Assembly: GCA_016930485.1 (NCBI GenBank)
Contig: JAFGGP010000030.1
Location: 2,745-66,744 of the forward strand
Direction: 5' to 3'
From: Candidatus Omnitrophota bacterium
Lineage (GTDB): Bacteria > Omnitrophota > Gorgyraeia > JAFGGP01
DNA length: 64,000 nt
How positions within the stretch are numbered: position 1 is the stretch's first letter; every line of letters begins with the position of its first letter. This document shows positions 736 to 46,503 of this stretch, one piece after another. The notes below the pieces were generated by a model. It made no database searches. It was not told where the DNA came from and worked only from the letters and a program-made list of their open reading frames with translations. The position numbers and the translations under genes were made by a program.

Positions 736-3700
736 GTTAGGCACCTCGCGCAGGCTGCGCGGCCTCAGGTTTTTTAACTCCGCTAAAATCATCCTGCCGA
801 TTTTCCATTGTTTTTTGTCTTTTTGTGACGGTCCTGAAAGGCGCGCGTTTTCTGTATCGGATACCCGGGAATGTGTTTTATCCCGCTGAGTGGCTACCCC
901 GAGAGACCAAAATAACCTTCTGGCAATAAGCCGAAACCGTTCTGCGGCATTCCTTAATGGGGAACGTCCGAACACAAACTCCCCTGTTATACCCTCCAGC
1001 TTAAGGAGCTGCTGGAAAGCCCCTTTTGCCCGGGGTGTTTTCGGCAGATGTGCCCTGTTTAAAAAGACAATATTGCCTGCCTTAACCAGCACTTGACTGC
1101 TGTCCGTGAAATCGGCTATGAGTAATCGACTGTACAAGTTTTTAGGCACAAACTCTGTGTATTCCTCAAAAGGCAAGGAATAAGAAGGAAGAGCCGCATA
1201 GAGAAGCGGGTGTATGCGTTTTGCCTGATTCTCAAGAACCTTGTTAAGGGCGGGATAATCAGGGAGATATATTACATCAGGATCAAATGACCGTTCGTTG
1301 AATTGGCTCTGAAGGTAGAGTACTAAATTATCCTCGTCTTTCAAAGACGCGTTCTTTTCCTGAAGATGATGAATAAGCGGAGTCAACGCATTAACAAGTC
1401 TGATATTATCAGGATACTCAAAAACCGCATCAATTACTGTCTTTACGGCCGCTACTGTTTTGGCATCGACTTCTATCGCACCCCATGAAACAGGTATGGA
1501 CGTAGTTACCGGCAAGCTTACCACAAGTACTGCCGGTACATTATCCACGTCTAATTCAGTTATATCGTCAGGTGTTGTTACGCCTTTAACGGTCAGAAAA
1601 GTTTGTGGTATCGCCCCGGGTGAAAGTGGAGTATTAGAATAATAAATGGAGATGCCGTTTATCCGAACATGCTCAAGCTTGCTGAGATCATTGACTAATT
1701 CATTATTCAGCATAATCTTGCCATCAGGGCAAAACCGCATTCTTTCTTTTACTATCTCGCTTCCGTGCTTTTTATTGATGGAAGACCGGACGCGAACCTG
1801 CGTTCCCGACCGTGATACATTCTGTGCGTGTGGCTCGATCGCCAGACCGAAAGAACCGTTGGTACGTTTAAAAACTAATTTGTATTCTTTGCCTTGGGAA
1901 GCAGTTATTACGGTAATGGTGTCGTCCTTTTTGTTCACAAACTGCAGCCCCGAATAAAAACCCATGCCAAACCGTCCGAAAGTCGCTGCACCCTCCTTGT
2001 CTGTCATAGTCGGGATTAGAAGATTGATGAGCACTTCTTTCAGGGTCATGCCTTTTGCCTGATCAGTTACTACAATATTCCTATTGTCAATCTGCACATC
2101 TATCTGATCAGACTGCCCCGGCACCAGTTTATCTATGCTATTTTCAACAAACTGGGGAATAGCATCGTATTTATCGCGTGTCTGGAAGGTTTTTATATTA
2201 TCAACCAGATCGCGCCAGTAATTACGCTGGCCCGGGGCCTGATTTAAAATCGGCGTAAGGTCCTCTCCGTTGTCAATGGCCTGCATGAGAGTATCGAGTT
2301 GCTGATCATTACTTGCCACAAGAAACGCGATCATATCACCGAGTGGTATAAACTCGGCAGCAGTAGATGGAGCAGCAATCTCATCATCCGTGAATTCCCC
2401 GGGCTGCTGCCGTGTCGAGCCAGTAAACGTCGCCATACCCAGCATGGGTGCTTCCCGCGGAAGGGCGGCAAAGAGATCTGTCAGGCTGGCGTGACTGCCG
2501 AAGATCAGCAGCGCGCACTCGGTCGCTGCCACCATAACAAGCGTTATAAGAAGGATGGTCAAAACCTTGTCTATCGGCTTAAGCGCGCGGAAGCGGGTCC
2601 AGGCCCATTTGAACGGGTTCGCGAAAAATTCCCGCCGGCTTGCCGCGCGGGCGGCGGCCCTCTCCTCAGCAACACGGTTTCTGTCTACGAGGGCGTACAG
2701 CTCTGCCTCGTTGGTCCAGCGCGGCTTCTTCCCCTTAATCTGTCTTGCCTCTTCAGTCGCCGGGGAAACTGTGTCTTTACCGGCCCCGGGCTCTCCCTTT
2801 AGACTTTTAACCCCCGAGGTTCCCGCATCAGCCACTTGACCACTAACCTCGGGGGTTATTGCCTTGGAGGTTGTTGTGGGCCCTTCCGCGCGCTCGGCTT
2901 TTATCTCGGCAAGTATCCGCTCCATCTCAGCAGCGACTCCTGAGGATACCTCTCTTTTGTGGCCAAGGCGAGCCTCCATCGTTTTTATAAAAGCGGCCTG
3001 CATTTCTCTGATATCCTGCATGGAATCCATCTGTTGGAAAAAGTCGTACATCATATCCACAAACTCATAGATCTGGATCTGGTTTATTTGAGCCGGCTCA
3101 TACAGCTTAAGTATCTCATGCATAGCGGTTTTCAAGACCTGCTCCCTGCCGTCCTCCAGTCCGTGCAGTCTTTTCTGCAGACCCTGCATAATTTCAGCGG
3201 TTGAATTACCAAACTGTTCAGGGTCGTCCAAAAACTCCAGAATAACAGGATGGCTAAATATGCTTCCCAGCGTTGTCCCGAAACCGCTGCCCGCTTCCCG
3301 CTCATCACCGGGCACCGCTTCCCATTCTTCTGTCGCATCACTTGGTTGGGCGGTATCGGTCGTCTCGCCTCTCGGCCGGCCGGTGATTTCATCCAACAGA
3401 CGGGAAGCGGCTTTTTCTATATCATCGGTTGTCGCCAGTCTGCCAAAGACAAAGCCCTTACCCTGTTTCTGCCATTCCAGCTCATACCGCAGGGCTTCAA
3501 GGTACGGGCTCTTCGGATCAAATATCCTGGAGACAACTTCTATGTATTTTTCCAGCTTCTGCTTAATCTGTATCCTCTCCAGAAGCGCCACCGTAAGACA
3601 GACATTTTCGCGGATAAGCACTGCCTGGTCCTCATACCCTGTCAGAGGCCCCATAAGCTGATTGGTCAGCGCAACAGTCGCAAGCACCAGAAGTTCATCC

Positions 3701-6700
3701 GCTGTCGCGTCCTCATCAAGCTGCTGCCGCAGGTGCTCAAACGCGCCGATCTGCAGGAGAAGCTGCGGATTTCCTACATTGTTAACCAGTATCTCGCTCA
3801 AGTCACGGTAGTTCGGGTCAAGCACTATATCTACCGTGGCATCAGGCATGACAGGGGTACGTCTTCCGAGCTGAGAAATAACGCCCTTTCGTTTGTCCAT
3901 GGCAAGATTAAGGTACTCGATAAACGCGTCGACAGAAAGGCGCATTCCTGCCATACGCATATTGCCGACTGCCGCGACAAGTCGCCGCAGGCCTGCATCC
4001 TGCAACTGCTCCGGCGTCACCTCAAGCCTGCCCCCGCGCAGCGTAATGCCGGGTATGGTAATCGGCGCGTCGCCTGTCTTGACCCACCCCTTCACCTGCC
4101 ACGCGGGCCCTGTCCGGCCAATGGAGCCGGCAATCAGCTCTGTCACTGCCCGGCCGGCCTCTTTCTCAGCCTGTGCTGACCGCGCCTGCTCCTCTTCCTG
4201 CGCATAATAATCAGCCCCTATCTTCTCAAGACCGGGCCGCAGTATTTCCGCTAAATATTCACCGGTCAGTTCCGGGATCTTCTCCGTGCCTTCGGGCGTA
4301 ACCCTGACTATCTCTTTCATCTCATCGCCGAGGTCATGCGCGCCGGGAAAGTCGCGTATCTGCGCAAGTTCGTGGGCAAGGCTCGCTGTAAACTGCGTAT
4401 GGTCGGCCTGGTATGCCGCGTAATCATCCTCACCGATTATGACCTGATTGGCGCCGGTAAGCACACACCCCTCTATCGGTACTCTGCGCGCCTGTGGTAC
4501 TCCATTGTCCAAAACCATATCCAGCCTCACCATCCACTCCTGTGGGACAACGATGATCTCTCGAGGCAGCGTCTCTGCCGGGCCAAAATCCCCTAACGCG
4601 TCGAGCACGTCCTGCGGCACCTCTCCATGCCGTATCCGGCCGGGCTCTCTCTCCATCCTTAGCTCTATAGCCGCCACATCCTCCTTTGTAACCTTCCGGT
4701 CCTCTGAGTAGTCCCGGTCAGGCGGGTAGAATAACTGGTCAAGAATATTCCTTATCCTCTTCGTTTTTTGCTCTCTAAAAAATTCGTAACCAAGATCCAT
4801 CGTATTCAGCCACCCCAGCATTTTTAGCATCTCCTCATACCGATACTGCTCTACCAGGGCCGGGACAGCGGGATTGAGGTATAATCGTCGAATCAGCTCG
4901 TCATCAAAAAGGTCTTCGTGTTCAAAAAGCACCTCCTCTATGCCTCTAATCAATTTCACAAAAGACTCTGGGGCAGCATCGCTGCGGTCCCAGTCAGCCT
5001 TGAGGGGTTCGATTCCGGCCAAGAACTTCCGTAACAGGTCTGAATCATATGAACGGCCGAGCTGGGTCAGAACGGCGGGGATCCCTTTATTGTCCCGTAT
5101 CTGGGCGCGGTAGTTTTGTTCTGAGGACAGGGGGCCGTTTTCTTGAAGCAGGACGTGCCATATGTGAGCCCCGGTGCTTTCCTTGCCTATCGCCCCAAAG
5201 AGGTGGGCCGTGGCCTCAAGCATGAGGTATTGCTTGTGGGCCGCCTTCATCTCCTCAGGCAAGATTTCTCCCCAGGCACGGAGAACCTCCCCTACACTGT
5301 ATTCGGCAAAAGCACCGGAAAAGTTCTTTTCCGCTGCTGCCAATACCATCCGGTGAACAAGAACGTCATTGGCCATACATTCCGGGATAAGCTCTTTGGA
5401 GAACCAGCCGCCGACACGCTCTTCTCTCCCTGCTCCATACGAACCCGCATATGGCCGCACCATAAATCGTCCTGAGTCGCCATTAAGCCCGATATATTCC
5501 TTTTGTAGCAGCTCGCCCTTCATAGACTTGAAATCATCCGTACCATCATCGGTCAGCTCATCGCGGTATGTTGGTTCATCAAAGCCCTGAGGGTGAAGAT
5601 GCATAACGGTTGAGAGAAAATATCTGCGGTTTGTGGGGTAGAGAGGAAGACGCGGGTTTACATTCGCTTCTAATAGACCCCAGAAGGTTCGCCAGTCTTG
5701 ATAATAATCTTTCTCTCCAACCTCCTTTCCCTGCACTATCAATAGCTTGCCAGCGGCATAGACAATACCAATCTCGCCCTCTTTGTGTTTGTCTTTAAAA
5801 CGCTCTATCTCCTGCCAGAATCTTACCGAAGGCACCGTAATGCCGTTAATCGTCTCGGTGCAACTCTCGAGGTCTACCGCAAATACTGAATCGGCGCCTG
5901 AGAGGCCGATTGCCTTCAGATTATCTAAGGGGAGGAAGGAAGAAAAACTCTTATCGGCGTCTTTCAGCCACTGTCCTTTCCACCATCCACTACTTGCCTC
6001 AGCTGCCATGAGAAGATACTCATTCCACTCGATTAAATCCTCTGCATAGAGGTAGCCGGAGGCGTGCTCTCTGTGCGAAAATATACTTTCTACCCGCTGC
6101 TCGATCGCCTTCTTTGCCTGCTCATCTGCCCGCTCATTCCGCCTGATCGACCCCACGCCGAACATGCCGAGGAGGGGCATGCTCCTATGAGCCCCCGCGT
6201 GAGCCAGTCGACTGCCAACTTCTGGGGTTGAACTCAGTGCAAGGATAATCAGCGCGGTGATTGCCGCCGCGCCCAAGGCGATGCCGGCAACGAGGAGTTT
6301 GTGGTCCCTGACAAAGGCGAGGAATCTCCTGAGGCCGCTCTGCCTGCTCCTCTCCGGCAACGCTAGCGTTTCCCTTTCCGTCACCCTGGCGCCGAGCCGC
6401 ATGACGATAGCGGTGTTATTGTCCGCATTAAGCTGAGAGGTGACCTGCTTTGCATTGTATTCAAACTTTACAATCTGCCTGAATGTTGTCTCGATTTTTT
6501 CTTTAGTCAAGCCGGTGCTGCGTGTGTCGCAGACCCCGTCTGTGGCAAGCAGGATAATGCTATGCGGGCCAAGCTCCACCTCGTCAATGGCAGGCTCCCG
6601 GCTTACTATATGCGCATATCTCCGGTCGCCGAGCGACCTTGTCAGCTGAATCCGCCTTCCTGTACGCACATTCCTGATAAACAGATTGTCGTCTGTGAGC

Positions 6701-9700
6701 ACAACACCTTGAGCCTTAAGACTCTCTATTTCCTCTTTACTTAAAAACCGCGCATTGTGTACAGGGCCTATGTTAACCTCACCGTTCTTATCCCGTATAA
6801 CTGCGGCAGAATCGCCTATGACGCCTCTATAGGCCTTGAGTTCATCGCTCGGCACATAGATAATAGTCAGGGTGGAGCCAGAGCGTTTTTTGCTGACCAG
6901 GCGCCCAAGCTCCTTAAAGGTACGCTCTAAGGCCTTGTGCACATCCCCGGTTTCGTCTTCAAGACAGGTACTGAATATGTAGGCCGCCTTTTTGGAGAGC
7001 AGGCGGGCAGTTCCCCTGCCCCCATGGCCGTCCATTACCGCCATGAACATGCCCTCGCCATGGTGAATGTCCGGCACGCTGACAGGCGTGGTTATGAAAA
7101 AGTCTTCCTGTGTTTCTCTGAAGCCCCGCATGGTGTGCGAGGTGACTGTTGCCGAAACCTCCTGGCCGTCTTTCGGTTTGATGGTGAACTCCCGAAGCGG
7201 GCCGGACGCCTCCTTTGCACCGGCCTGCCACATCCTCCACGCGACAAATATAACTATACCCAGTGTCAGCCCCGCGCCCAAAAGCACCAGCCTCCCCTCA
7301 GGACCCAGCGCGTCCAGCAACCGCCCGATCATCGTCATCATCGGCATCATAACCAGCCCGGCAAGGTTGATGTTCATGCCGGATGTGCTGCTTGCGGCTT
7401 GCACCGTGGCCATCACTTTATCTGTTGGTTGATTATCTGTCTTTCTAGGCATCAAAACCAATCCAGAAGCTGTGGCGGGCGCACTAACCGTTTGAATAAA
7501 TTCACCCACGCTCGGATCATATGCTTGAGATAAAAACAATCTTTCATCCAAGATAACATTCGCTACAGCACTATTGGCCTGAATGCGAACCTGCTCAATA
7601 TCTTTGCGTTCCAGGGCAAGCATGGCAAGTTGCAGATTATCTTCTTCGTAGGGAACAATCCATCGTAATGTATCGGCCGATACCGGCACACCATATTCCT
7701 GCGCTTTACTGAATACTTGCCGTAGAAAAGAGCCAAGTTCTCTGGACGGTACCATAATAAAAGCATTTGCCTCGGTAAGCGGGAGCCCCTCTGTTGCCAA
7801 AACCTCTCCTGGCCAAATCATTATCTGACCTTGTGAAGTACCGGCGGCGAACCTTTCAATAAACCACGGATCTCGCCCTGTAGCAACCACTCCCTCGGCT
7901 CTCCATTTTCTGACCGCATTCCGGGAACCGGCTTCCACACCAGGCTGCCAGCTAAGCGTCATTGATTGTTTATAGTCAAAATCTGACGATTTTTCTCGCG
8001 CCCATTGCCAGGCTTTTTCATACCCCAATTCCATGATTTTACGCCTTATATGTTCAGTGGCTTGAACAGACCATAAAGAATTATCAAATACGGTAACGCT
8101 GTAATCAGCCTTCAATCTTTCAATGTCGTCCATAGCAATGAAGATGCCGAACTCCCCTTCTTCTCTAGGTTTGTGCATCCTAAAATAACTAAATCCCTCT
8201 TTATATCCTTCAGAAAAGCGGGGATGATAATAATGATATGCATTAGGAATATTGCCGTACAATCGTTCAACAGCACCGATCTGAAAAGAGATATCTTCTT
8301 CTATGCCACCGCTTTTTCTCGCTATTCCCCTCTTTAAAACCCGTTCACCTGCTAATTTTCCTAAAAGACCGCTTAGAACAATATCCGCAAGATATTCAGG
8401 CTGCGTAGCGTGGGTAGCGAATATCTGATTAGGCTCGAGTGTAGTGGGAATTGAGTGTATAATGCGTTCCTCTTCGGTGAGCGGTCCGCGCAGAAATCCT
8501 GTTATTTCTTCAAGCATTGCCGTTATCAGAACACTGTCATATAGGGATCTGACACGCTGTAATCCGTCAAGACCATCTTTATTATTCCGGACTATATCTG
8601 ATAAAAGCGTATCGAGATCATCCTTGGATATGCCCTTACCCACCGCAAGAAATTCTGAAAGTGCCCGGTCGTAGTGAGGCACAATAGTTACAAGTGTTTT
8701 CTTTATATCAAATCCCACCCTCATGTGCTTCGCTATACCGGTAATATACTCGTCCGCATGGTGAGGCAGAATTGCACCTTTTTCTTGTAACGCGTCTTTA
8801 ATAAGGGCTAGCAATTTACCTTCGGCCTCCCTGTCTTCTTTAAGATGCCGCACAAAAGATTTCAAGTCTTCCCGGTATAGTTCCATAGCATTTCTTATTT
8901 TTATCAGCCGCCTACCGGCAGGAAATTGTTTGAGCTTCCCTTCAAGCCCTTCCGGTATTTCCGCGCCGGTACCCGAGAGCGATGAAATATCTTGCGTCAA
9001 CTGCTCTAATTCCACCGCGTGATTGTCAAGCCAATACCAGTCCTCAGGAACAGGAAATCCTAACCGTTTTATTTCTTCCAAAATTTCCTCTATCTCGGTA
9101 TATACGCTGCTCTGCAGAAACTCCTGAAATAATCTGTCAGCAGTAGGTTGTCTCTGTATAGTCTCCTCTATCCTCCTCCCCCTCCGCAGCACCAGCACCA
9201 CAGCAACCGTCGCACCCACCACCGCCATCACCACACCCAGTATCATAAAAAGCGTGCTGGCGTCCATGTGCAGCCGTCCAAAGAGCCACGGCAGCGCGTT
9301 GAGCGGGAGGGCAAAACCAAACATGCCCCCGCCATGCACCCGGCCGCGGCCATGCTTGCCGCCATGCCTGCCGCCGCGCCTTTCATCCGGCCGTTGTGCC
9401 GTGCGACGGTGCGCGCCCGGGACAAAATCGCGAATCTGGTTAAACGCGGTAAACGCCTTGCCCTTTTCAATACCCTTATTATGAATTGCTGTTTCTATCT
9501 GCCGCAGTAAATCAGAAATGCTCTCGTTCTGCATCATGCCAAAAGCAATTGTGTTCCCTATCATCTCCTGGTCCTGAGGATTGGTAACAAGCCGCGAAAA
9601 CGCCTTATCGCAAAATAGTGTCCAGAGGCGATCTGAGTAGTACGGGGTACCCCGCTGCACACCCGCCATATCAGCAGGGGTAAGATGTGTTATAACTTCA

Positions 9701-12700: not shown

Positions 12701-15700
12701 GCAAAGGCATCGCTCACCTTCTGCATTTCCGTGTTAAATTGTTGTGTCGCTGCATCATCGCCACCCGGCACACTGCCTATGCTGCCGGTAAAGGCAATCG
12801 GCATAAACGGCACGGCCTCAAGCATCCGCGGCACCCCGGTGAAAAGATCGAGGCCCCCACCAACCCCCGGGGCCTTTAGCGCGGCCAGGTGCGTTTCAAC
12901 CCCGCTGGCCGGTGCCGCGCCGAACGGGTTGAGGTCTACGCCAAGGAGGTAGAGCGCGATAAGGGTAATGCCCACGGTAACGGTTATGCCGATCAGGGCC
13001 GCCTTCTGCCGCCCTGAGAGTGTCGGCCACCGGCGGACGATAGACCTGCCCACCAGGAAGACCGCAGTCCCTACAAAAAGCCACGGCAGTGCCGAGGCTA
13101 TAGCACCGACTACCCCGGCAAGACCGCTTGAAAAGATCCGCGGCAGAAGATTTGCCGAGAGCAGAAAAACGGTAGACCCGAGCCCTCCGCCATGCACCCG
13201 GCCGCGGCCACCCCGGGCCGCCGGCGCTCTCACGTCCGCAGTCGCCTTCGTCATACCGGCGGTCGGCGCCCTTGGGCCCCACATCATCATCGCCCCCATC
13301 TGGAGTCTCTCGTTAAAACTCCTGGCCGCAAACGCCCCGTGGACCCACAGCATGGAGTCACCGCCCGGGTCAATAACCAGTGCGTCGGTCACCTTTAGTT
13401 CATCCCGTAAAAATGCGGCCATCTGCCTGAGGGTCCCGCCCATGCGGTTTGACTTGCCCTTGAATATAATCTCGAGGATCTTCCCGTCATCGCGCCTGGC
13501 AAGGATATGATGCGGATGGATGCCGGGATACAGAATAACCCTGACCTTGCCTCTGGCCTCGTCAATAGCAAAGTCTCCTTCCTTAGTTACCTCATCCCAC
13601 CCCCTGGGCCTGTACTCCTGCCCGCGTACGATGCCCTGACGCTGAAACCATCCGGTCAGATCCGCGGCATTCGGTACAACCGTTACGATCTCCCCGTCAA
13701 CCACCTTGTTATACCGCATATCAAGCTCGACCGGTTCCCCCTGCGCGACTTTGTCGAACAGTTCCCCATTCAGCGTGGTCGGGTCAACGTAACACTGGTC
13801 CACCCCGAAATGCGACAGGGAGTCGGGTACGAACGGAAAATCCGCAATCCACCTCACGTCATAGTAGAGATCCAGCACATCTGTTATCGGCACTATGCTG
13901 CCGGTATCCTCTCCGGGTTTTCTGAAGATAAGCGGCGGTGAGGTAAGGAACTCCTGGACCGTCCCGGTGATATCCTCTCCGGTGTCCGCGTCGTAAATCT
14001 CCCGGTACCGGTTGATGGTAATCCTCCTGAACCCCTGCGTACCCTCTACACCTTTAACAAACGCATAGTAGACAAACTCGCCATCAAACCGTTGCTCCTC
14101 ACCGGTTACATGAAACCATCCCTTATCCTTGATATAGCCGACAACGCCCGGGTTGGCAAAGAGCGTGCCCGCGCCGGTAATGACCTCGGGGGCTACTTTG
14201 TGCTCCGCCATAAAGGACCTGGCATGTTCGGAGAGTGTCATCATGTCCTTGCGCATGGTAGTAGCGGGATCCGTGTCCCAGCCTACCTCGCCATCGGAAC
14301 TCACATATCTGCCTATGCCGGTATTCCGCAGCATGCCTGAGCCGAGATTGCGGGATTCCTGGACGCTGAGATAAAACTCAAGCTCTGATGGATCTATTTC
14401 TTTAATAATCACCTGGGTAGAACCGCCGCGCTCACTCTCAAACGGCAGCATAGTGTATCTCTGCGACAGGTCCGCATCTCCGGTCAGAAGGCCAAACGTC
14501 ACCCCGCCTGCCTGCGACCGGTCTTTTGCCTCGCCCCCGGTCCGTATCCCCACTACAACCGGCCCGGTAAGAGCAAGTTCATTGATGGCACCCAGATACC
14601 GCTGGAGCGCCTCCTCCGAGGGCGGACCGTAGTCACCGACAGGATTGAGCGGCAACGCCTTGATGTGGATATGGTTGGTATAGCCTTCTTCATGGGCCAC
14701 TTTATGGATAATCGTGGCAAGACGCCGTGCCTGTTCGGGCGTGTCATTGATCCCCTCTATCAGTGGCACCCGTACATCAAGACGCGACCTGTTGTGAATC
14801 GCCCTGTCATAGGCGATTGCGGCCTTGACGATTTCGGCAACCGTAGACATCGGTTGCTTCCTGTCGATCAGTGCGTTCCTGGTATCCTCATCTCCGGACA
14901 GAATAGAAAGGTCGAGCATCGGGGCACGCAGAGTACCGGTGAAGCCCTTCTTTACAACCGCTTTCTGCAGTTCCCCGATCTTTTCGGCGTCTACCCCCAC
15001 GGTCTGAATCCGGCACTTTGAGATGACCTTATCCTTCTCCAATTTGTAAACGGCGTCTACTATCTCATTGATATTATTCAGCGGTTCGCCTATCCCCATA
15101 CAGCTCAGCTGTAAATTTTCCCCGGTGCCGTACTCTTCCAGAATGTTATCCCTGACAAACTGAAGTCCGAGCGTCACCTGATCCCTTAATTCCTCCGCGT
15201 TGAGACTGTGGGCAATTAACCTATCCTCATGGGTAGCCTTTCCTGTTGCGCAGTAAAGGCACCCCTCATGACACCCCGTATCGGTCGATATGCTTATGGA
15301 ATGGAGTCCGCGTCTGAGTACCGCCACTGTTTCAATAGTCAGATTCTTGAATCGTTTGAGTTTAAACTCCATTCTGATCACGCGGCTCTCCAGGTCGGCG
15401 TCAACCTTCATAAGGGTAAGGGCGTTGCTTGTGTAGCTCTCCGGCTCTACCGTCTCGCCAAATACAGAAGGATTCTCCGCTCTGATGCCGGCATATTTGA
15501 TATATCCCGTCTCGTTTATAAGGATGCGCTGCGTTGTGTCGGGAGCGACGTAATATATCCGGTATCCCCTGCCGTATATCTTCGCGTCTCTATCAAGCTC
15601 GATAAGCCTGCCCCACTCCGCGGTCTTCCACTGCGTGAATAACAACTCCTCTGCCCGTGCCGCGCCAAGGGGCTGACCGGGATCGTTGTTAATGCTCTCA

Positions 15701-18700
15701 ATTAATTCACTCCCCGGAAGATCAGGGGGCGCCGGTGTGAAATCGGGCTGAAGTCCGTCGTCTACGTGGCTGTCCTCGATGCTGCCTACCCCGCCCGGCA
15801 GCACAACGACACCGAAGCGGAGGAACCTGGGGAGAACTCTTGATAGGTTAACGTCGTGCGTCAGCAACATGAAAACCGTAAATGTCAGCAGTATGGCACC
15901 CAGCGCAATGCCGGCGATGATTGTGGTCTTCTTCCATCTCGGCAGGTCGCGGAAGCGGGCGAGGAGGCTTTTCTTCTGAAAAGCCGGCACCTCTCTCAGG
16001 CTGTGCCCCTTAAGTTGTGCAAAGATCCTTAGGAATTGTGCGCCACCCTTCTGGAATTCAAGCGTCTTAGAGTGCAGGGGTCGCCTGGCAAACTTATCAA
16101 GGTGTGTGGCAGCGCCAAATAAGATAGGGATGGTAACAACATTTTCCTCTGGAATAATCTCCTCTATCTCCTCTTCGGTAACATCCTCATGCGTGTCATT
16201 GGGTGCATCACCCAGTAATGCATAGGCGGTGCACTGACGGGGCGTAAGCGGTGTCTCAAATGCTCCTTTCTCTTTAAAAAACTCTAAGGCTCGTAGGGCG
16301 GTTGAATGCTTATCTGCTACACTTATGTCAACAGCAGTGCTGCTGTATACCCGACAGAGGCTGTCCGGTATATCATTCTGGATTGATGCAAGAATTACAG
16401 CAAGGAGTACTGTCAGATCTGTCTGATTGTTTTTGGCAGCTGCCGCTGGTGTAACGGCCTTTTTGAGATGCTCACTGGACTTGAGCAGATCCAGGGTAAG
16501 TTGCCCTTTATCCGCGGGTAACTTGATAAAGAGGTCGCCTAAAATCTCGTGCGCCTGCGGGTCTACGGCAAAGTAGTCATGCTCGTCACCGCGTTCTTGC
16601 TTCTGCCACTTACTACGCAATGACACGTCTTTCCACCGATCGATATCGCTATCGGTAATCTGTTGGTCTGATGCGATGCTCAGCGCTTCTCTATATTGTT
16701 TAAGTTCGTCAAAAAATGCCTCTTTATACCGTCTGGATAGCTTTTTAATGTTTTTGCTATCAATGTGTCCGGGGGGCCACGCTTTGTCTTTTTGATAATC
16801 GTTATCCTTATTAAAGTAGAAGGCGCCGTTACCACTGTTGAAGGCTACCAGAAGTTTGCCAAGGAGATATTCTTTATTGGTTGCCTTTAGAATAGGCTTA
16901 ATAACATCGATAACATACTCTTCTATTACCTTTTCAGTCTCACCGGTAAGGATGATAAAGAGGTCAACCTCCTCGAGTGCCTTAAGAAAGGCGTCCAGAC
17001 ACTCTCCCTCCAGTATTTTTTCACCAACAGTATTGAAGTAATCTGCAATAACTATGCTGCGGCCCACTTGTTCTTTGGGGAGTCTGAACCAGGAAGGAAC
17101 GGTGAGATCCATGGTGAGATGCCCTAACCATATCATAAACGCATCAGCGGCCGCATTATAGTCAGCATAGATTATCGCAGGCTCACCCTGCCCCTCACCT
17201 ACCGGCTGTCCTTTCATCCTTTCAGCACTCACAAACAGCACTCCGGCAATGCCGATTTTCTTGGCTGCGCCGATATCCGTTTCGAGAGAATCTCCAATCA
17301 CAACGCACTGATCTTTCGGAATTTTCTTTTTTCTAATCACTTCTTCCATGATTTCGTCTTTCCCGACAAATGTTCCCTTATTATCTACCTGCTGGGAATG
17401 TATCTCACTGAAGCAATTATTGATACCCAGTGCCTCTGTCTCAGCGGTCAATCGATCGTAACCTGCAGCACTCGCAATAACCAGCTCAACCCCTTCAATT
17501 TGACTTAGTGCGTGAATTCTCTCAATGGCCCCGGGCAGTACCGGCGGTATGCCGTGGTAGTCTCTTTCCAGAATGAATCTGTAATTGCGTGTGTAGATCT
17601 CGAGAAACCCCTCTTCGGTCAGTTCCCCAATAGAAATATTATAATCCTGAAATACACTCTGCATGTGTCGCATGCGTTCAAGGGGAGGCACTATATCTTC
17701 CCGTTCATGCCGCTCCATTTCTCTTACTATCGCCTCTCGCGTCTCCTGCGGGATGTCTTGTTGGCTTCTCTTAAAGAACTCGGCACACATATATTTCCAT
17801 GCCGCGATACAAAGTGATTGAGTGTCAACTATTGTGTTATCCCAGTCTATGAAAATCAGCCGCGCTGGTTTTGACATATCGCGCGCCTCGCGTTGTACAA
17901 AACCGGGCTGCGGTGCGCTGATTGCTTGAGGCCGGCTCGGCAGGACGCTGCCTGCGTTTTTCTGACTGATTTCCTCGTTGATGAGTCGCATCACCTGCGC
18001 CTGTTTTGAGCGGCTCACATCTGTAAAGGTTTGGCGAAATAGCATATAGCTTACATGATGCTGCAGGGCCGCCAGCCTTTCTTGTTCAATGGCGGTTGCA
18101 GACTGTGCCTCTGCCGCATAATCCGTAAGCCACGACTGGATAGCCACGCGAATCTTCACATTGTCGTTCCGTCCCTTGGCAGGTCTAATCCATATCATCA
18201 GTTTCGTTGCCGTTGTTGAGATAATAATCGCGACCGTAAGCGGCAGTATAATCATCGCAAGGGCAAGGCCTCTTATAACCCGTGGGGTGCGGGGCAGGCT
18301 AAATACCTTTATATCCGCGGTATGAGGATTTTTATTATCGTTGAGTTGGCCATCCGGAGTTATAATCTGCACCCTGCCAAGGCGCGTCGGCACATAACGG
18401 GTAAAGAGGCCGTCATAGAGGGCTTTGAATAGGGGCTTTAATCCGCCAGAGCCACTTTCTAATAATTTTGTTATGATATAGCGAAGTTCTCTGAATGTAC
18501 TCTCTGAATATCGCGTATACCATATAATCACATTTCTTACATTAAAATAGGTCCAAAAGGCTCCTCGTGAACCTCCGGTTGCCTGCATGCTTTTATGGTA
18601 GACAGCGATGCGCGGATTGAATAGCGTTTCGTAGTTAAACTCCCGGTAGCGGGTGGCGAGTTCTGGATCCTCGTCATACATGAAAAACCGGTTATCATAG

Positions 18701-21700
18701 TTCCCCAGAAGCAATAGAGTCCATGAGGGGAACGCCATAAAACTGGGGGCATGCGAAGCCTTGACTATTTCGCCTTTCTCTAATACCTGCAGCTCATCCT
18801 GCCCATCAGCCAGGTACATGGAAAATGTCTGATCGACCGGATAGGCCAATGCCTGCCCATGCTCATCGAACCGCGTGGAATACATATATCGGGCAGCACC
18901 CATCGTTGCCACACGGTCGGCATTGTTCTTGATGCCGTCAACCGTTGCCTGAAATGCGTTTCTATCAAAGGTAATGTCATTGTTAACGGCAATCACCAGG
19001 CCGGGATCAAGTTTATTCATGGCATGCTCAGTGCCCAGGTTATAGCCGCCTGCTGTGCCTCCATTGGTGATCCATTCATTAGTTTGTTGCTGTGCCTTGA
19101 CATTTGCCGGGTCCAGTTCGCCTTTTATAAACGTAATTTTGAGGCCTTCGGGCTTGTCTTTGGTGAAGATATCTGGCCCTTCATAGATAGCTGATTCTTT
19201 GTTTCCGTACCGGTCAAAGAAGTTGTCAGGGGAATTATTATCCACGATAATAAGGTCGATTTTATCCATCGGATAATCTATGTTATAGAGCGAGCGCACC
19301 AGATCCAGCGTGTCTTTTTCACCTACACCGCCCTCTTTGCCCCAGTGCAATACTACAAGGCTTATTCGCGGATAGTCCTCTTTAAGGAATGCCTTTTTTC
19401 TTTCTTCAACACTGTTTTGGGAAAGCCACATAAGGTTATTGAGCCAGTTCTTCCTGCCGTTATAGTCGCGCCTGTCGAGCCAGCCGATGCGCCGAGTGAG
19501 TATTGTGCGTGCGCTGGGATTTCTCGTCTCTGCCTGATCAAGGAGGGCCTGCACCCGCGGGTCTTTCAGCGGCTTAGGAGCAAAGGCAAGGGCGTGGATG
19601 TCCTGTTCTGTTAATACAGGCTGCTGAGATAAGTCCCTGTCGCGGCTCTTTATCATCCCTTTCCCCACAATTATCATCGGCGCGGCGTGTTTGAGGGTGT
19701 CCAGAGCCGCACCGTGGGTCACAGTAGCACCCATGGTTGGGGACAGGCCTTCGCCAATTCCCGGAACCAACTCAGGAGCCTCGGGCATTATTGCCGGCGC
19801 GCCCTCGGTAAGAAGCGGGGTTTCAACTCCGGGAGTTAACATGACCTCGGGGGTTGCGATGGGCGCGTTCGACCAGAAGTCTATTGCTTTTAGCCACGGC
19901 ACGTCGGTAGTGAAAATCAGGACAAGACATGCCACTGCTACGGCACCCAGCGCAATGCCGGTGATGATGAGCGCCTTTTTCCTGGGTGACAAGCGGGCGA
20001 GGGGAGAACGGGGTATAATAGTCGCTGTCTTCGCCTGCATAAAGATATCTATTTGATTCGCGATCACCTCTTCTGTCTGGCTATACGTATTACCGCGCGT
20101 TGCATTGGCCGCGCTTACCAGGTAGCCTTCGAAAATGCGTTCAAGTGCGGTGATTAGTTCTGCTTTTTCCTCCTGTGTCTTTGCATGTTCATAGGCATCG
20201 AGAAAAGCAAATGTTACAGCACCCCAATCCGCTGCGGTAATGGAAACTGAGTCTTTGTCAAGCCCCGTCTGTCCTGAGAGTCTCTTATAGATATCTTCGG
20301 GTAAGAGGCTCTGGTATATTTCCGAAAACTGCCCCATGCCCTCTGCAAATCCCTGATAGAGTTCGTCGGTGTTAAGTCTCTCGGTCTTATTCGGTAACGC
20401 CCCGTTTTGCTTCTGCCATGTCTCGGCATTGAAGGTATCGGCAAACGGCTCTTCTTTTGGCTGCACCGTGGCAATGTTCTGCCAGTATTTTTTCTCTGAT
20501 AAGAGGATATCAAACAAGTTTGAGACGGTAGCGATAAACCGTTCGCGTATGGGATGTGGCATCGGGAGATGAATCTTCCTTCCTATAAACACATTGGCAA
20601 CCTTCGCGTCAGGATTGCGCAAAGACCGTGCTCCCATCCACTGATCCTGTCCTATAATAGAATTCCACATAGTCCAGTTCTTTCTGAAATTTCTGGTTTG
20701 TTGCGGATGAAATCCCCAGTCACCGCCACCCAGTTCGCGTAAATGCCTGCCGTATACAGCGCTAAACAGCGGATAGTAGAGCCAATCGGTTATTATCCCG
20801 TCCGCATCCTGTGTGTAATTTCGCCAGTATTCGGGTGACACCACATCATAGCCCGCGAGCTGAGGCGCGATATATGCCTTGACCCAGTCCTCGGTTATAC
20901 TTTCAAGGTCGCCGTCAACAAAGGCAATAGCATCGGCATCTAACTCACCGCCCAGGTCACAGATAGACCGCACACCCCACCCTTTTCCTTTAACCGGCAG
21001 TGTCAGGGTAAAACGATGGATGCCCTCTGTTTCAGGGACCGCTTCGGCAATCCGGGCAACTTCCTGTGAGACGGAACCCGGTCCGCCCGATGGAATAATA
21101 ACAATATTCGCCTCAGGGTAGTATTTTTTCGCGCCTTCTTCGAGGGTCTTAATTACCTTGGGAACTGTATCTTTTTCATTAAAGAAATTCACACCCAATA
21201 CAATAACAGGCTGATTTTCTTTGAAATGCTGTTTCAGCTGGCGCGCCTTCTTTTTCCACGGCTTCATGTTGTGTTGGTACCTCAGATATGTCTTGAGGTT
21301 TTTGAAATTCGCCTTCGGAACGGTTCTTGTTATCTCGCTGCGCTCGCCGGTGACACTGCCGGTTAATCCGGGAATCACAAGGGTGCCGGCCACGGCAGGT
21401 AAGGTATGTTGAACGGCCGGTGTCTGCTGGAACACCTGACCAGCGCCTCTAAGGGCCTCAGGCATGGTCTGCTTCATAGCATCGATCCCTGAGGCCCCGA
21501 ACTCAGCCGCTTTAACTCCCAATTCCGGGGTTGTAGTTTTTAGAACCTCGGGGGCAAGCGTGGTAAGTTGCTTTGCCGCATTCGGCCAGAAGTCAATGAC
21601 CGGCATGTCAAACCAGTAGCCAAGGGCAATGTATATAGCAGCAAGTATGCCAACCGCGGCAAGTGCAATGAATGCCTTTTGACGGGTTGGCAGCGCATGG

Positions 21701-24700
21701 AAGCGGGCGAAGAGGGATTTTTGTGAAGGCTGTTTCTGGAATCTGTCAATCCTATCCAGCCGCCGGCCGCGGATGCGGTTAACGAGCCTGAGATACTGCC
21801 CGCCACCCTTCTCAATACCAATACTGGAGTGTGCCGGGGTGTTTGTAAATTTATCCAGATTGTGCTCAGGGCCCAGAAAGATGGGGGCTACCGCGACAGG
21901 TCCTGTGATCAGCTTTTTGAAATCCTTTGCGCGCAATTCAAGATGCAGGTCATTGGGCGCGTCTCCCATAAGCGAGACCAGGGTACAGCCGCCGCGGCGG
22001 GGCTTTTTCTTGAGGGTAGAGTCGAACAATGTCAGGGCACGAAGGGCGCTCGACTGTTTATCCTCCATACACACATCAACCGCCTCACTGCTAAAGACCA
22101 CGTGTCTTGCCTCTGTCTCTCGGACATCCCCCCTGATTGAACCGGTAATCGCGCCTAAGAGAGGCGTTATGTCAACCTCTCCCTTTTTGAGAGTAGCCTC
22201 AGGGGTAATGGCATCCGTAAAGTTTTTGCTTAGTTCATCAAGTGACATGATGAGAGTCAGCTGTCCGCCGTCTTCTGAAAGCCGCACCGCGATATCCCCT
22301 AAAAACCCGAGGGCATCAGGAGGGAGAAAGTGATCAAGTCGTGACGCCTTGGTTGTCTGGGTAAATTCTTTGCTCGTTTCAGCTGCTGAAACTGTCCGCC
22401 ATGTGTCAGGTTTATCAGGGTCGCATGTCTTTTCCAGGGCATACGCTTGCCACGTATTTATCTGTTCATCGGTTATCCTGAGCTTGTCCTTATATGTCCT
22501 GATCTGCTCAAAAAACCGGGTTTTAAGCTTCTCGCTGAGTGACATCACGGTCTCGGACGGTATTATCTCAGGCGGCCACGCATCCTGCATCTCATAACTA
22601 TCATCAGGAAACCAGAATGCCCCATTGCCTGAGTTATAGACAACCACGAGTTTTCTGAGGAGATGGAGCTTGTTCTGCTTTTGTAGTTCGGGCTTGATTA
22701 TGTCTATAAGATCGACGACCTTTGAGTCTTTTGTGTCTCCGGTCAGAACGACTACCACATCCTGTGTCTCAAGCGCCTCAATCAAGTCATCCCGCTCTTC
22801 TTCGCTCAGTTCGTACACTCCGAGGGTATGGCGGTAATCCGCTATCGTCACCTGCCGGTCGACTCTTTTATGCGGCAGCTTCATGCCCTTGGGCAAGGTG
22901 AGGGTGATGTCGGGTAGGTTGGCGAGCCAACTCTCTTTTTCTTTGCTGGTAATACCCTGTTTCTGGTGGCGCAGGTTGGCAACGATACTGGTGAGTTTTT
23001 TATTGGTGCCGTCTACTGTTTCGTTTAAGAGTGTGCGCAGGGCATTGACCGAGGCAAGGGTCTCTATTTTTCCATCGTGGGCATTCTTTTCTATAAAGGA
23101 GAAGGTTTCCTGCACTACCTCAGGACTGTCTTTACCCCTCAGGATATTCTGGAATTTGTCATTGCCGTTTACAAAGATATCGATGGTATTAAACGTATTA
23201 AAGAGGAGTTTCATGTCTTCGATAGAGATAGAAATGCCCAGGGCTTCCTGACCTTTTTCGGCTTCCTTCAGGAAATCCTTATACTGGCGCATGGGGTGGT
23301 AGCGGAGAAAAAGTCTGAGCTCGGGGGAAAGCTCGATGCCCTTTGCCTCGGCTACTTCAACCGCGTGCTCACCGGGTGAGAACGCGTGGAGCAGGTAGTG
23401 GCGTTCTTGCTCTGAAAGAATCTCGCCAAAGACCTCCCGGTTCTTTGCATCGCTAAAGGCCCATTCTTTAAATTCTTCATATGAGGTAAAGTCGCTTGAG
23501 CGCTCGCGCACATCAAATTTTTCCTTGGTAATCTCGTTGAACCGGGCGGTTGCCTTACGGGCCTCCTCGCTATCCGGGTTCTGTGCTGCCTTGCGGCTCA
23601 TCAGTATCGGGAAGCCGATCTCGTGGAGGATGATCATCCGGTGGCCAAAGCCTCTGACCCTTTCATCCATATTCATCCGGTCGGCCATTTCATCAAAGAG
23701 CCCGGTTGCCTCTGCGGCATGATACTTTCCCGGGCCTTCGTTATATAAAGCAAGGGTTTTTTTGTCTGAGAGCCCTGCAGGGTCGATTGTTTTCTTTTTC
23801 GCGGTCTTAATACTCCCTGTCATCCCCGGCAGTATCAGCGTGCCGGCGCCGATGTCAAAGAGCCGGTGGCTGTCGGCAAGTACTTTAGCGGCGTCTGCCT
23901 GGGTAAAGCCGGACGCGGTGATGCGGAGGGCGCCTTCGTTGGACAGGATAAACTGCTCACCGCCCGGCCCCTGGAAAAGGGCGAGCTTTCCCTCGATATC
24001 GCCTGAAAGATGCGAGAACCAGTCAGGGTTCACCTCGATGTGCTGGGCGTTCGCGTAGGCAATCGCAAAGGCCAGAAGGGCAAGGGCACACAGGGCCCCG
24101 ATCCATACATACTTCCTCCCCCGCACGCGCGCCCGCTTGATGTTATCTTCTGAGTTTGCACTTAAGAGACGGCGCAGCGACCCCGGCACCCAGTTAAGAA
24201 GCAGCTGGTGCGGCAGGGGCGCGACACCGCGCAGGAGGTCGTGGTAGCGCTCGGTATCCACGTCCTCCTTTGAGACCGGCGAGACAACGGCATAGGACAT
24301 ATGTTTTTCTCTGAGGAGTTCGGCGATACCGCGGGTGTGAAATCCGCCGGCAATTAACACATAGACAGGGGTTCGCGGGTGCTCGGGTTCGCGGGTGCTC
24401 GGGTTTTGTTGATCTTTGAACCCGCTCACTTGCGAACTCGCTAACTCGTCAATCTGTTTAAGTGTGTTGTTGACCATCACCGCGTCGCGCTTATGGACCG
24501 TGTCGTAAAAGGCCTGAAAGGCGCCGAGCCGCGCGTCGAGGAGCGCCGGGTCATACTGTACCTTTGTCTTTATCATATAGGGGCGGCGCCGGGGCTCGAT
24601 GAAACTCCGGAAGCGCTCGACAGAGATCTCACTTTTGTGCCCCTCAAACCACGCGAATTCATCGCGCGATATCTTGAGGTCAACGAACCTTGTTAAAAAC

Positions 24701-27538: not shown

Positions 27539-28507
27539 TTACTGGGTGGTGTCTTCTTGAAATACGCCCATCCTGCGGAATTTCTGGTACCGTGCCTCAA
27601 GAAGATCGTCGATAGACAGCTGTTTTAATTCACTAAGAGCAGCGAGGATCGTTTCCTGCAATAATTCTGCGGCGCGTTCCGGATCGCGGTGGGCCCCTCC
27701 GAGAGGTTCAGGAATTATATCATCAATAATGCCCAATTGTTTGAGGTCGGGTCCGGTCAGCTTCAGGGCCTGCGCAGCCTCGGGCGCCCGCGCCCGATCC
27801 TTCCAGAGGATTGCCGCGCATCCCTCAGGAGAGATTACCGAATAATAGGCATTCTCCATAATATAGACGCGGTCACCGATCCCGATGCCCAGGGCCCCGC
27901 CTGAGCCGCCTTCGCCGATAACAACAACCACAATCGGCGTCTTAATCTTGAAAAACTCAAGGAGATTGTCCGCGATGGCAAGTGCCTGGCCCCGCTCTTC
28001 TGCGCCGATACCCGGATAGGCGCCCGGTGTGTCAATTAGACAAACAAGCGGCAGAGAAAACTTTTCTGCCATCTTCATAAACCGGAGCGCCTTGCGGTAT
28101 CCCTCGGGGTGGGCACTGCCGAAATTTCTGTAGAGGTTTTCCTTGATGTCCTTTCCCTTCTGGTGCCCGCAGATCATGACCTTCTGGGTCCCGATGGTAC
28201 CAAGGCCGCCGACAAGCGCCTTGTCATCCGCGAAGGCCCTGTCACCATGCAGCTCAATAAAATTCTTCACCATAAGCGAGATATAATCATAGGTGTAGGG
28301 CCTGCGGGGATGCCGGGCTATAAGGACCCGCTGCCACGGGGTGAGCTTCTCATAGGTCTCCTTCTTCAGTCTTGCCAGTTTCTTCTGGAGATTGCCGATC
28401 TCCGAGGAGAGGTCAAGCTCGCCACTTTCGGTGAGGTGCTGCAGCTCCTCTATCTTATTCTCAAGTTCAACAATCGGCTTTTCAAAATCAAGAATGTTGT
28501 GCTGCAT
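27539..28507 (-). CDS. accA: Acetyl-CoA carboxylase carboxyltransferase subunit alpha
   Basis: 322-aa ORF. Full-length AccA pattern: LDFEKPI..LE.KI.EL, RHPRRPYTYDYI, GHQKG, FGSAHPEGYRKALRFMKMAEKF.LP, IDTPGAYPGIGAEERGQ, IGEGGSGGAL. Confidence 0.95.
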   Translation of the reverse strand: MQHNILDFEKPIVELENKIEELQHLTESGELDLSSEIGNLQKKLARLKKETYEKLTPWQRVLIARHPRRPYTYDYISLMVKNFIELHGDRAFADDKALVGGLGTIGTQKVMICGHQKGKDIKENLYRNFGSAHPEGYRKALRFMKMAEKFSLPLVCLIDTPGAYPGIGAEERGQALAIADNLLEFFKIKTPIVVVVIGEGGSGGALGIGIGDRVYIMENAYYSVISPEGCAAILWKDRARAPEAAQALKLTGPDLKQLGIIDDIIPEPLGGAHRDPERAAELLQETILAALSELKQLSIDDLLEARYQKFRRMGVFQEDTTQ

Positions 28508-28521
28508 AACTTAGTTCCACT

Positions 28522-28643
28522 GGTTAGCGGATTCTCCGGGTTCACGGGTTCAAAAATAGTTCTTCGGGTTACTCGGGTTGCACGGGCTATGCGGGTTCTT
28601 TTTTAAACTCGAGTAACTCGCGAACTCGTCGAACTCATGAACT
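28522..28643. repeat. Intergenic array of 9-nt-periodic CGGGTT units and inverted GAACTCG units
   Basis: ttcgggtta ctcgggttg cacgggcta tgcgggttc - ttttttaaa - ctcgagtaa ctcgcgaac tcgtcgaac. Lies between the accA start and the ldt stop. Confidence 0.6.
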
Positions 28644-28659
28644 AATTATTGGGCATCGC

Positions 28660-29628
28660 TTATTCAATAATCACCACTTCGGTCCCGATCGATAAAATGG
28701 CGTACAACTCCTCGACATCAGCATTCCTCATACGGATACAGCCCTGGGTGACATTCTGGCCTATTGAATCAGGGTCTGTCGTACCGTGAATGCCGTAGCC
28801 CGGTTTCGAAATTCCCAGCCATCGCGAACCCAGGATGTTATCCGGACTCTCCGGAGGGACAATCGCGCCGGCTTTATACCATACCGGGTCACTGAGTTTA
28901 TTGACGATGGTAAACTCTCCCTGCGGGGTAAAGTTATCTTTGCCGGTTGCCACGGTATATGTCTTGATAACGTCTCCGTTCGCCTTCAGGAATAATGTAT
29001 TAAGTGACTTATCTACAAGAACGCTGAACTTTGAGCCGGGAATTTTCAGGTTGTCGCCCACCCTGATAAGATCCCCTGTCAATCCATTTGCCCTTCTGAG
29101 TAACTCCACCGAAACGTTAAACTGCTGGGCGATCTTTCCAAGCGTGTCGCCGCTCTGCACCTCATACCGGATATCGTTTCTCTCCTCGTCGATAACCTTC
29201 GAGAAGAGAATCTTCATGTTAACACTCTCCCATTTTTCCTGAATCTCGGAAATGAGTACCGTATTCGGATAGTCTCTTAAAATAGTCTGATAAGCCCCTT
29301 TTATGCCGAGGAGATTGTTCCTCGCCTCATAGATATCCGCCTTGAGGAGCAGAAGTGCAACCACATCCTCTATATTTTCTGTATCTTTAGCAAAATCAGG
29401 AAGTTGCGAATCTATCAAAGCGACCGCCTCATCAAAATTTCCCTCGGCCATCAGTTTTTCGGCCTTCTGAAGAAGCGACATGCTCGGTGCCGAAAGCGTC
29501 ACGCGAAGAGGCGCTGCCTGAGGAAGCGGTTTCACATCCCCGGTAGTAAACCGCCGTGTATTGGCAACGTAGATAAACAGTAAAACCGCCGCCAGTATAA
29601 TAACAATAGTCACCATCCGTCGAGACAT
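28660..29628 (-). CDS. L,D-transpeptidase (YkuD) with LysM domain and N-terminal TM anchor
   Basis: TM IVIILAAVLLFIYV; LysM YEVQSGDTLGKIAQQFNVSVELLRRANGL; YkuD catalytic HGTTDPDSIGQNVTQGCIRM. Confidence 0.9.
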   Translation of the reverse strand: MSRRMVTIVIILAAVLLFIYVANTRRFTTGDVKPLPQAAPLRVTLSAPSMSLLQKAEKLMAEGNFDEAVALIDSQLPDFAKDTENIEDVVALLLLKADIYEARNNLLGIKGAYQTILRDYPNTVLISEIQEKWESVNMKILFSKVIDEERNDIRYEVQSGDTLGKIAQQFNVSVELLRRANGLTGDLIRVGDNLKIPGSKFSVLVDKSLNTLFLKANGDVIKTYTVATGKDNFTPQGEFTIVNKLSDPVWYKAGAIVPPESPDNILGSRWLGISKPGYGIHGTTDPDSIGQNVTQGCIRMRNADVEELYAILSIGTEVVIIE

Positions 29629-30920: not shown

Positions 30921-31358
30921 TACACCCCCATTGGTAAGTCTGGTTAGAGTTACCCGCGGCGACTGACAGGTCCCTGTCCTTTTAGCGGCACTAAATGGCA
31001 TATTCCCGCTGATGCCAGCTGTTTCTCTACCAGAATAAGCCCGCCGCTAACAGACTGCAAGGTTTAACGTTATGTAATTCTACACTAAGGGGCTAAAAAA
31101 AACAAGAATTCTTTTGGAAGACATAATGAAAGCACCACGCAATGGTCTATAAATGCAATGGTTGCGGAAATAGAGAGTGTGATAAACCGGGACGCTCTGG
31201 CGCTGCTTACCATGCAGGGTCCCGGGGGAAAATGGGATTGACAGCGGCATAGAAATATGATAAAGATAGTATACTTGTGGTGTTGTTGCAGCCTTTCCTT
31301 GACGTACGCCATCCATCATACAAGCCCCTCAAAAGCCCGTATACTCTCTCTAACAGTA

Positions 31359-34065: not shown

Positions 34066-34078
34066 CAAGAAATCCTTT

Positions 34079-35256: not shown

Positions 35257-35332
35257 GCTTCTCTATCTGTTTGTATTCTGTATCTTAATTATACAAAATA
35301 TAGAAAGATTGTCAAGAAAGAAATAGAAATGA

Positions 35333-36111: not shown

Positions 36112-36113
36112 TT

Positions 36114-45210: not shown

Positions 45211-46503
<1,293 letters not shown>

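Follow-up and report, generated by a model that had tools for sequence, protein, structure and literature searches.

The DNA analysed here is a stretch of 64,000 nucleotides from a Candidatus Omnitrophota bacterium (assembly GCA_016930485.1, contig JAFGGP010000030.1, positions 2,745 to 66,744 of the forward strand), hereafter called the window, which carries a giant open reading frame (ORF) on its minus strand. Between window bases 26892 and 1, one minus-strand frame runs through 8,964 codons without a single stop. Its first ATG lies at 26844 and, since no stop has been reached at window base 1, the C-terminus of the protein is missing; the visible part (1-26844) encodes at least 8,948 amino acids (aa), and residue i in the numbering used throughout starts at window base 26892-3(i-1). 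An original prediction, made from the sequence alone, had described a PP2C phosphatase, a JAB/MPN-like region and a GHKL ATPase in the distal third of this protein, a placement that refers to the visible part only, as the ORF leaves the window.

The giant ORF is a real coding gene. Stops interrupt each of the other five frames at a density of 7-56 per 600 codons, the G+C content follows the order first > third > second codon position in every 1.8-kb slice, including the slices that have no database match, and the Pfam domains are distributed over this one frame. The protein further contains an internal duplication, in which aa 1322-1759 (21616-22929) and aa 3255-3679 (15856-17130), both on the minus strand, are about 40% identical. 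The duplicated unit takes in a pre-anchor motif together with its membrane anchor and has been kept in frame; an alignment of both copies, scanned against metagenome contigs, gave no relative. The plus-strand ORFs antisense to the giant frame (2299-2802, 3250-4179 and 6937-7533) show no family matches and were rejected as genes, being shadows of that frame. One could suspect that the assembly is chimeric here or that the ORF has decayed and lost its function, given that most of the protein has no homologues and that part of the ORF is higher in G+C than much of the remaining window. However, a stop-free frame of 26.9 kb is neither a chance product nor a survivor of decay, and the uniform codon-position G+C, the intact PP2C motifs described below and the in-frame duplication all make such an artefact extremely unlikely.

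The Pfam families detected in the ORF are GT2, HAD, TPR, PP2C and GHKL, in addition to a radical SAM match of 20.9 bits that stays below the gathering score of 29.5. Kyte-Doolittle scans find about 15 hydrophobic anchors plus a C-terminal cluster of transmembrane (TM) segments, such that a membrane helix appears every few hundred residues between unrelated enzyme modules and each module has hydrophobic anchors on both sides. Taken together, a single ORF of great length combines TM helices at regular intervals with many Pfam families that are unrelated to one another, and from our point of view it is reasonably likely that the predicted interval belongs to one inner-membrane-tethered multi-module protein of the type that has been catalogued among the giant proteins of Omnitrophota.

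The best-defined module of the interval is a PP2C-type Ser/Thr phosphatase domain (6394-7146, minus strand). PF00481 matches it at aa 6583-6790 with 64.4 bits (E=1.7e-17; gathering score 20.3) and still with 59.7 bits when the 4,464-aa half of the protein is scanned whole, PF13672 reaches 23.8 bits, and the SpoIIE family PF07228 matches weakly (E=0.0015). All expected motifs (RETQED, DGHGG, GDS, LGD, DGVCD and DNN) are present between 7119 and 6403, the last of them at 6403-6426. The acidic metal-binding positions are found in RETQED, MDGHGG, LATDGVCD and ADNNTAIV, and in the alignment to a solved PP2C structure (PDB 4jnd, E=7e-5) RETQED, DGHGG, GDS, LGD and DGVCD fall in register. Judged by these motifs, the domain looks catalytically competent. 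Its database relatives are four small stand-alone PP2C proteins only, the closest being a 253-aa protein annotated as PrpC (33% identical, E=1.3e-28). The module is preceded by a pair of hydrophobic segments (TM9; 7228-7368, aa 6509-6523 and 6535-6555, by Kyte-Doolittle scans), which is probably a membrane hairpin, and is followed by TM10 (LVAGIALGAAAITALIILALSS; 6229-6294, aa 6867-6888), identified by hydrophobicity scans, with the basic stretch SGLRRFLAFVRDHK just before it. A complete PP2C phosphatase at 7150-6390, between TM9 and TM10, was thus correctly predicted.

The second recognisable module is the core of a GHKL (Bergerat-fold) nucleotide-binding domain of the HATPase_c_3 or Hsp90-MutL-MORC type (1789-2163, minus strand). 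It follows TM11 (LTILLITLVMVAATECALLIF; 2500-2562, by hydrophobicity scans), which again has a basic stretch, WTRFRALKPIDK, just before it. Detection by PF13589 (HATPase_c_3) requires that the module is scanned alone, as the match is not listed in the scan of the whole 4,464-aa half (E<=0.01); it is nevertheless stable across two cuts, with 30.9 bits (E=3.2e-7; gathering score 25) in a cut of 581 aa and 33.7 bits (E=4.4e-8) in one of 221 aa. NCBIfam adds weak, sub-threshold matches to HtpG, GyrB and the sacsin ATP-binding domain, and the PDB sequence matches are nearly all to GHKL proteins (GyrB, ParE, HtpG, Grp94 and MORC4). The four boxes stand in canonical order and spacing between 2157 and 1789, namely the N-box PQFVENSID, G1 with DQAKGM, G2 with GRFGMGFYSG and G3 with GTQVRV. 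With a profile match above the gathering score and the boxes in order, the claim of an Hsp90/sacsin-like GHKL ATPase at 2170-1700 downstream of TM11 is borne out.

Two positions of this core depart from the consensus. In the G1 box (VTDQAKGM) an Ala takes the place of the first Gly, and in the N-box (2131-2157, minus strand) a Gln stands four residues before the Asn, where the general-base Glu would be expected; a phmmer alignment to GyrB pairs 'ipqfvensid' with 'vweivdnsid' and sets the Gln opposite the Glu. In GyrB, MutL and Hsp90 this Glu is needed for ATP hydrolysis. Since the general-base Glu of E-x-x-x-N is replaced by Gln, the motif suggests a module that would bind ATP but hydrolyse it poorly or not at all, a change that bears on the activity of the module and not on its membership of the fold. 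The rest of the module (745-1788, aa 8369-8716, minus strand) belongs to no family detected by profile scans; the cut 745-1692 gave no Pfam match at E<=10, and the whole module found no homologue in a word-indexed protein search.

Between TM10 and TM11 lies a module of about 1,210 aa without a family (2587-6219, aa 6892-8102, minus strand). An exhaustive phmmer search with a 1,200-aa query against 1.84e9 representative proteins gave no match, as did a word-indexed search of 5.8 billion proteins with aa 6892-7300. Metagenome contigs held no relative either, and no significant match was found in Pfam, NCBIfam or PADLOC. The check for defence systems as such returned only a weak PP2C-like match and a weak JetA-like match of no weight. 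This orphan module is inferred to be lineage-specific. It was here that the original prediction placed a JAB/MPN-like, JAMM-type region, and the pattern H-x-H-x7-T-x2-D is indeed found exactly at 5601-5560 (minus strand), where the 14 residues HLHPQGFDEPTYRD are a literal and single match to H-x-H-x7-[ST]-x2-D, with Thr at the position of the canonical Ser. The bare pattern, however, arises in 2.2% of shuffles of the giant protein, and the true chance level is higher than this because many motifs could have been tried before this one was picked out.

Support for a domain behind the pattern, by comparison, was not obtained. Three cuts of the region gave no Pfam match at E<=10, which answers the proposed check for a JAB profile in the negative, and there was no NCBIfam match at E<=1, no PADLOC match at E<=0.1 and no related PDB sequence match. 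As a lead-level test, a small JAB profile was assembled from four sequences (AfJAMM, Rpn11, CSN5 and AMSH-LP). It produced no alignment to the region in hmmsearch with all filters off, and in hhalign the two H-x-H strings were paired, but at a probability of 0.14%. Single-sequence AlphaFold2 models of two cuts (256 aa and 155 aa) reached a predicted local distance difference test (pLDDT) score of 35.8 and 37.1, respectively, and are unusable; both low-confidence models draw the H-x-H segment as a helix and not as the end of a strand, and Foldseek returned only noise for the first of them. Glu residues do occur about 51-53 residues upstream of H-x-H, in EGEIGIVYAAG, which may form a beta-hairpin according to the prediction. 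Interpretations of the H-x-H as cupin, amidohydrolase or PHP were considered by eye and discarded, as their spacing does not fit and they lack profile support. We conclude that the H-x-H...T..D match in the orphan module is probably fortuitous and that the assignment of a JAB/MPN domain, behind which the motif stands alone, appears unsupported. Neither a ubiquitin-like protein nor an E1/E2 or RadC-type partner was detected in the scanned parts of the giant ORF and its neighbours. The suggestion of a quality-control function leans on the JAB assignment. The GHKL module also lacks the catalytic Glu.

A PP2C phosphatase and a GHKL kinase form the core of partner-switching systems, and in the giant protein both folds stand in one polypeptide with a single orphan module between them. 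One could speculate that a RsbU/SpoIIE-like phosphatase and a RsbW/SpoIIAB-like Ser kinase act here in opposite directions on a phospho-acceptor hidden in the orphan module, and the weak SpoIIE-family match in the PP2C region points the same way. However, no STAS or other acceptor domain was found in aa 6892-8102 at E<=10, and the GHKL module matches HATPase_c_3 and HATPase_c in Pfam and HtpG, GyrB and sacsin models in NCBIfam, with no anti-sigma-kinase model listed. Its G2 box (GRFGMGFYSG) is typical of the Hsp90/MutL/MORC branch, and the general-base Glu is absent. We thus regard such a pair as decidedly unlikely. In comparison with RsbU/RsbW/RsbV-type modules, the giant protein contains neither a STAS phospho-acceptor nor an anti-sigma-type GHKL domain that could be found.

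The anchors that separate the modules follow a common plan. Each of the seven main single anchors is preceded by 3-6 Lys/Arg within 15 residues and followed by 0-3 within the next 15 (for example in the pre-anchor flanks 6295-6339 and 2563-2607, minus strand), the upstream flank often reading RF..LP...K and then ..GIALGA... Since the basic residues sit N-terminal, all main anchors are predicted by the positive-inside rule to be oriented N-in and, consequently, the chain would have to return to the cytoplasm after each single-pass helix. Other anchors are visibly paired hairpins. Directly before such paired-helix hairpins, the Gly/Arg-rich string GRGRVHGGG occurs twice on the minus strand, at about 13180-13215 (aa ~4563) and at about 9325-9357 (aa ~5850).

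Most anchors are followed, after 10-75 residues, by a short motif with a hydrophobic start, h-h-(P)G-x-(T/V)G-S-(I/V), as in LILPGMTGSI, LVIPGLTGSV, VVLPGGVGSI, IAFTGSIGS, LLGMFGVGSI and ATFTGST. Pattern scans locate copies at 23808-23846, 21351-21401, 19653-19685, 15777-15824 and 12771-12815 and, after TM11, at 2413-2451 (APMLGMATFTGST), all on the minus strand. A first regular-expression scan had already picked out PLLGMFGVGSI after TM10 (6145-6177, minus strand), which is followed by the charged, basic-rich stretch RRNERADEQAKK. The loose form of the motif occurs in 6 copies as compared to 0.16 expected from shuffles, an enrichment that is optimistic as the copies were already known when the pattern was drawn up, and the TM10 copy is not among the six that were counted. 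More degenerate copies are found after TM10 and after the anchor at aa 2308-2330. Lys/Arg make up 6% of the loops between anchor and motif but 14% of the 30 residues past the motif (Fisher p=0.003), a contrast carried by four of the seven cassettes. On the Hessa scale, the motif segments are weakly hydrophobic, with sums of +3 to +6 kcal/mol. The motif may serve either as a marginal segment for the return crossing or as a processing site.

If it were the latter, the giant protein would be a membrane polyprotein that is cut at the motif into separate enzymes, each tail-anchored by its C-terminal TM segment, the cutter being either a very divergent JAMM-type region or a protease of the host, for instance a rhomboid. 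The recurrence of the motif, its degenerate copies included, would be expected from such an arrangement, and so would the uniform N-in charge bias, as in a series of tail-anchored products, whereas the motif segments, with their weak hydrophobicity, do not make obvious return helices. The JAMM pattern is, moreover, literally present together with candidate upstream Glu residues. That giant proteins may cut themselves, by means of C39 or S8 peptidase domains, has also been raised already (West-Roberts et al., 2023, 10.1101/2023.11.21.568195). No protease family, however, is among the Pfam matches anywhere in the giant ORF, the JAB assignment has no profile support and the enrichment of the motif is that of a pattern defined post hoc. 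JAMM enzymes characteristically cleave after a Gly-Gly C-terminus, but the motif offers T/V-G-S instead. In addition, cleavage on the periplasmic side would strand the next module outside, without ATP and S-adenosylmethionine. Overall, a polyprotein appears unlikely to us. Its most specific version, in which the motif would be a dedicated processing or insertion signal and the orphan module a divergent JAMM protease that cuts there and releases about ten tail-anchored enzymes, including the PP2C phosphatase and a hydrolysis-dead GHKL protein, we consider very unlikely; if true, it would amount to the polyprotein logic of viruses in a cellular setting and to a general route by which giant bacterial proteins could be deployed.

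A different possibility is that the modules alternate across the membrane and that several of them act outside, on the envelope or on another cell. The N-terminus of the giant protein does resemble a signal peptide or signal anchor, single-pass segments would by themselves force consecutive modules onto alternating sides, and an action on prey cell surfaces has been proposed for published giants (10.1101/2023.11.21.568195). The charge asymmetry, however, is the same at all main anchors and does not alternate, and the Pfam matches of the whole ORF include no adhesin, dockerin, RHS, haemagglutinin, RTX-type, toxin or secretion-related family. The chemistry of the recognised modules likewise points inwards, as PP2C, GHKL, HAD, GT2 and radical SAM domains depend on cytoplasmic cofactors, namely ATP, S-adenosylmethionine, nucleotide sugars and divalent metals. 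A surface machine of this kind is accordingly quite improbable, and for the contact-dependent machine that had been suggested nothing in the ORF speaks, neither a secretion or toxin family nor a repeat family. Between N-terminal helix and first folded-looking module, about 380 residues of low complexity, rich in Pro, Ala, Glu and Thr, are encoded at 25600-26750 (minus strand).

As the enzymes require cytoplasmic cofactors and the main anchors are basic on their N-terminal side, we place the modules of the tethered multi-module protein on the membrane's cytoplasmic face, and the cofactor requirement favours this location whether the motif after the anchors is a return segment or a processing site. 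The modules would then be strung between the membrane anchors like beads, with the motif acting as a marginal return segment that leaves all of them in the cytoplasm. Within such a chain, the PP2C domain could dephosphorylate Ser/Thr residues in its own giant protein or in nearby membrane-associated partners, and the GHKL domain could serve as a nucleotide-dependent clamp or switch that binds ATP with little or no hydrolysis. The roughly 1,200 residues between the two would constitute a module particular to this lineage. The benefit of the fusion would lie in bringing independent activities together at the membrane in a fixed stoichiometry and not in a linear pathway.

Several observations weigh against this interpretation. 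Anchors that are all N-in demand return crossings, for which the weakly hydrophobic motif segments are the sole candidates, and three of the seven cassettes show no basic cluster after the motif. A signal-peptide-like N-terminus would put the first module on the outer side. For the PP2C domain, neither a kinase nor a substrate nor a STAS-like partner was identified, and the exchange of Glu for Gln in the GHKL domain is read from a pairwise alignment of a single sequence. Finally, the searches gave no relative of the giant protein by sequence, so that its assignment to the same kind as the published proteins is one of architecture only.

Beyond the GHKL module, the visible protein ends in a cluster of about four hydrophobic stretches (1-744, aa 8717-8910, minus strand; hydrophobicity scans), for which no significant Pfam match was obtained and in which the frame runs beyond the window edge. 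Searches with the last 829 aa against 185,579 species genomes and against viral contigs gave no relative.

The giant ORF is directly preceded, on the same strand at 27539-29628, by accA (acetyl-CoA carboxylase carboxyltransferase alpha) and a LysM-YkuD L,D-transpeptidase, which is an ordinary bacterial chromosomal context. Further away, a ComM/Mg-chelatase-like ORF (31257-32429, plus strand) has its ATPase domain broken off where a large serine recombinase (32383-34113, minus strand) begins. The G+C content falls to 0.35-0.41 until about 44 kb, and the region (31257-43800) also encodes a KaiC-like ATPase (36114-38126) as well as a tyrosine integrase (41531-42796). Its appearance is that of a mobile element inserted into comM, of which no 3' remnant was found. 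Two divergent fluoride riboswitches follow at 48007-48080 (minus strand) and 48216-48285 (plus strand), with 46.3 and 38.7 bits, respectively, at a gathering score of 34. The former heads a run of same-strand ORFs that includes an enolase (45211-46485) and a Na+/H+ exchanger (44003-45199); because it lies behind the riboswitch, the enolase is probably a copy that responds to fluoride, perhaps not the housekeeping one, and a poor taxonomic marker. Its best match, from a metagenome-assembled genome, is 81% identical, identities to enolases of many phyla reach no more than 69%, and no record with exactly this sequence was found. The window contains no ribosomal or transfer RNA genes.

Giant bacterial proteins represent a large block of unexplained coding capacity. 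The present ORF is a comparatively small example with two modules that have simple in vitro read-outs, namely phosphatase activity for PP2C and nucleotide binding for GHKL. Together with the repeated anchor cassette and its uniform charge orientation, this makes it a workable test case for the questions whether all modules are cytoplasmic, whether the chain is cut and whether the enzymes are active or degenerate. In our opinion the most useful by-products of the analysis are the GHKL domain with Gln for Glu and the same-orientation anchors with their recurring motif, by which topology and processing become concretely addressable.

When the individual modules are compared with known proteins, the PP2C domain shares the full PPM motif set, and a profile score well above threshold, with PrpC/Stp1-type bacterial phosphatases, and with SpoIIE it shares the attachment of a PP2C domain to membrane helices. 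It differs from all three in being an internal module of a giant protein with anchors on both flanks. With 25.6 bits (E=7.8e-6) against a cut-off of 230 in the NCBIfam Stp1/IreP model, it is, therefore, no orthologue of that family. The GHKL core has the Bergerat motifs in the same canonical order as the HATPase_c_3 ATPases (MutL, Hsp90/HtpG, MORC and sacsin), and its G2 box GRFGMGFYSG resembles the Hsp90 sequence GQFGVGFYS. In contrast to these ATPases, it carries Gln in place of the general-base Glu and D-Q-A-K-G in place of D-x-G-x-G, is followed by no recognisable transducer/middle, DNA-binding or client-binding domain and is tethered to the membrane on both sides. The likeness of the orphan module to JAB/MPN+ proteins such as Rpn11, CSN5, AMSH and prokaryotic JAB consists of the literal H-x-H-P-x6-[T]-x2-D string and the upstream Glu, as opposed to the missing profile similarity, the Thr in place of Ser and the helical drawing of H-x-H.

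For the protein as a whole, the closest comparison is with the bacterial proteins, for the most part from Omnitrophota and 10,000 to 147,000 residues long, that are described in two preprints (10.1101/2023.11.21.568195; 10.64898/2026.06.07.730766). TM segments account for about 2% of their residues, with up to one helix per ~370 aa, and their content includes HATPase, radical SAM, HAD, glycosyltransferase and TPR domains. In a 'multi-enzyme' class, many unrelated Pfam families tile one polypeptide, and 80% of the giant-protein clusters are sequence singletons; the authors propose tethering at the membrane's cytoplasmic face, while admitting that predicted localisations are often implausible (10.1101/2023.11.21.568195; 10.64898/2026.06.07.730766). 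PP2C is not mentioned in the portions of either text that were consulted. The protein studied here differs from the published giants in that neither SecA-DEAD nor C39, dockerin or TSP3 was found among its Pfam matches, and its visible 8,948 aa fall short of the 10-kaa cut-off of the catalogue, although the ORF leaves the window. It resembles the multi-enzyme giants in its size in the range of 10 kaa, its regular helices, its unrelated Pfam families and its mostly unannotated sequence, and the orphan module between two TM segments, for which no homologue exists in the databases searched, fits the singleton pattern. The remark that the mix of domains has no obvious pathway logic was a fair one, and just this is the published hallmark of 'multi-enzyme' giant proteins (10.64898/2026.06.07.730766; 10.1101/2023.11.21.568195). 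The lack of pathway logic is thus a now recognised property of a known kind of protein, and the domain calls themselves are ordinary.

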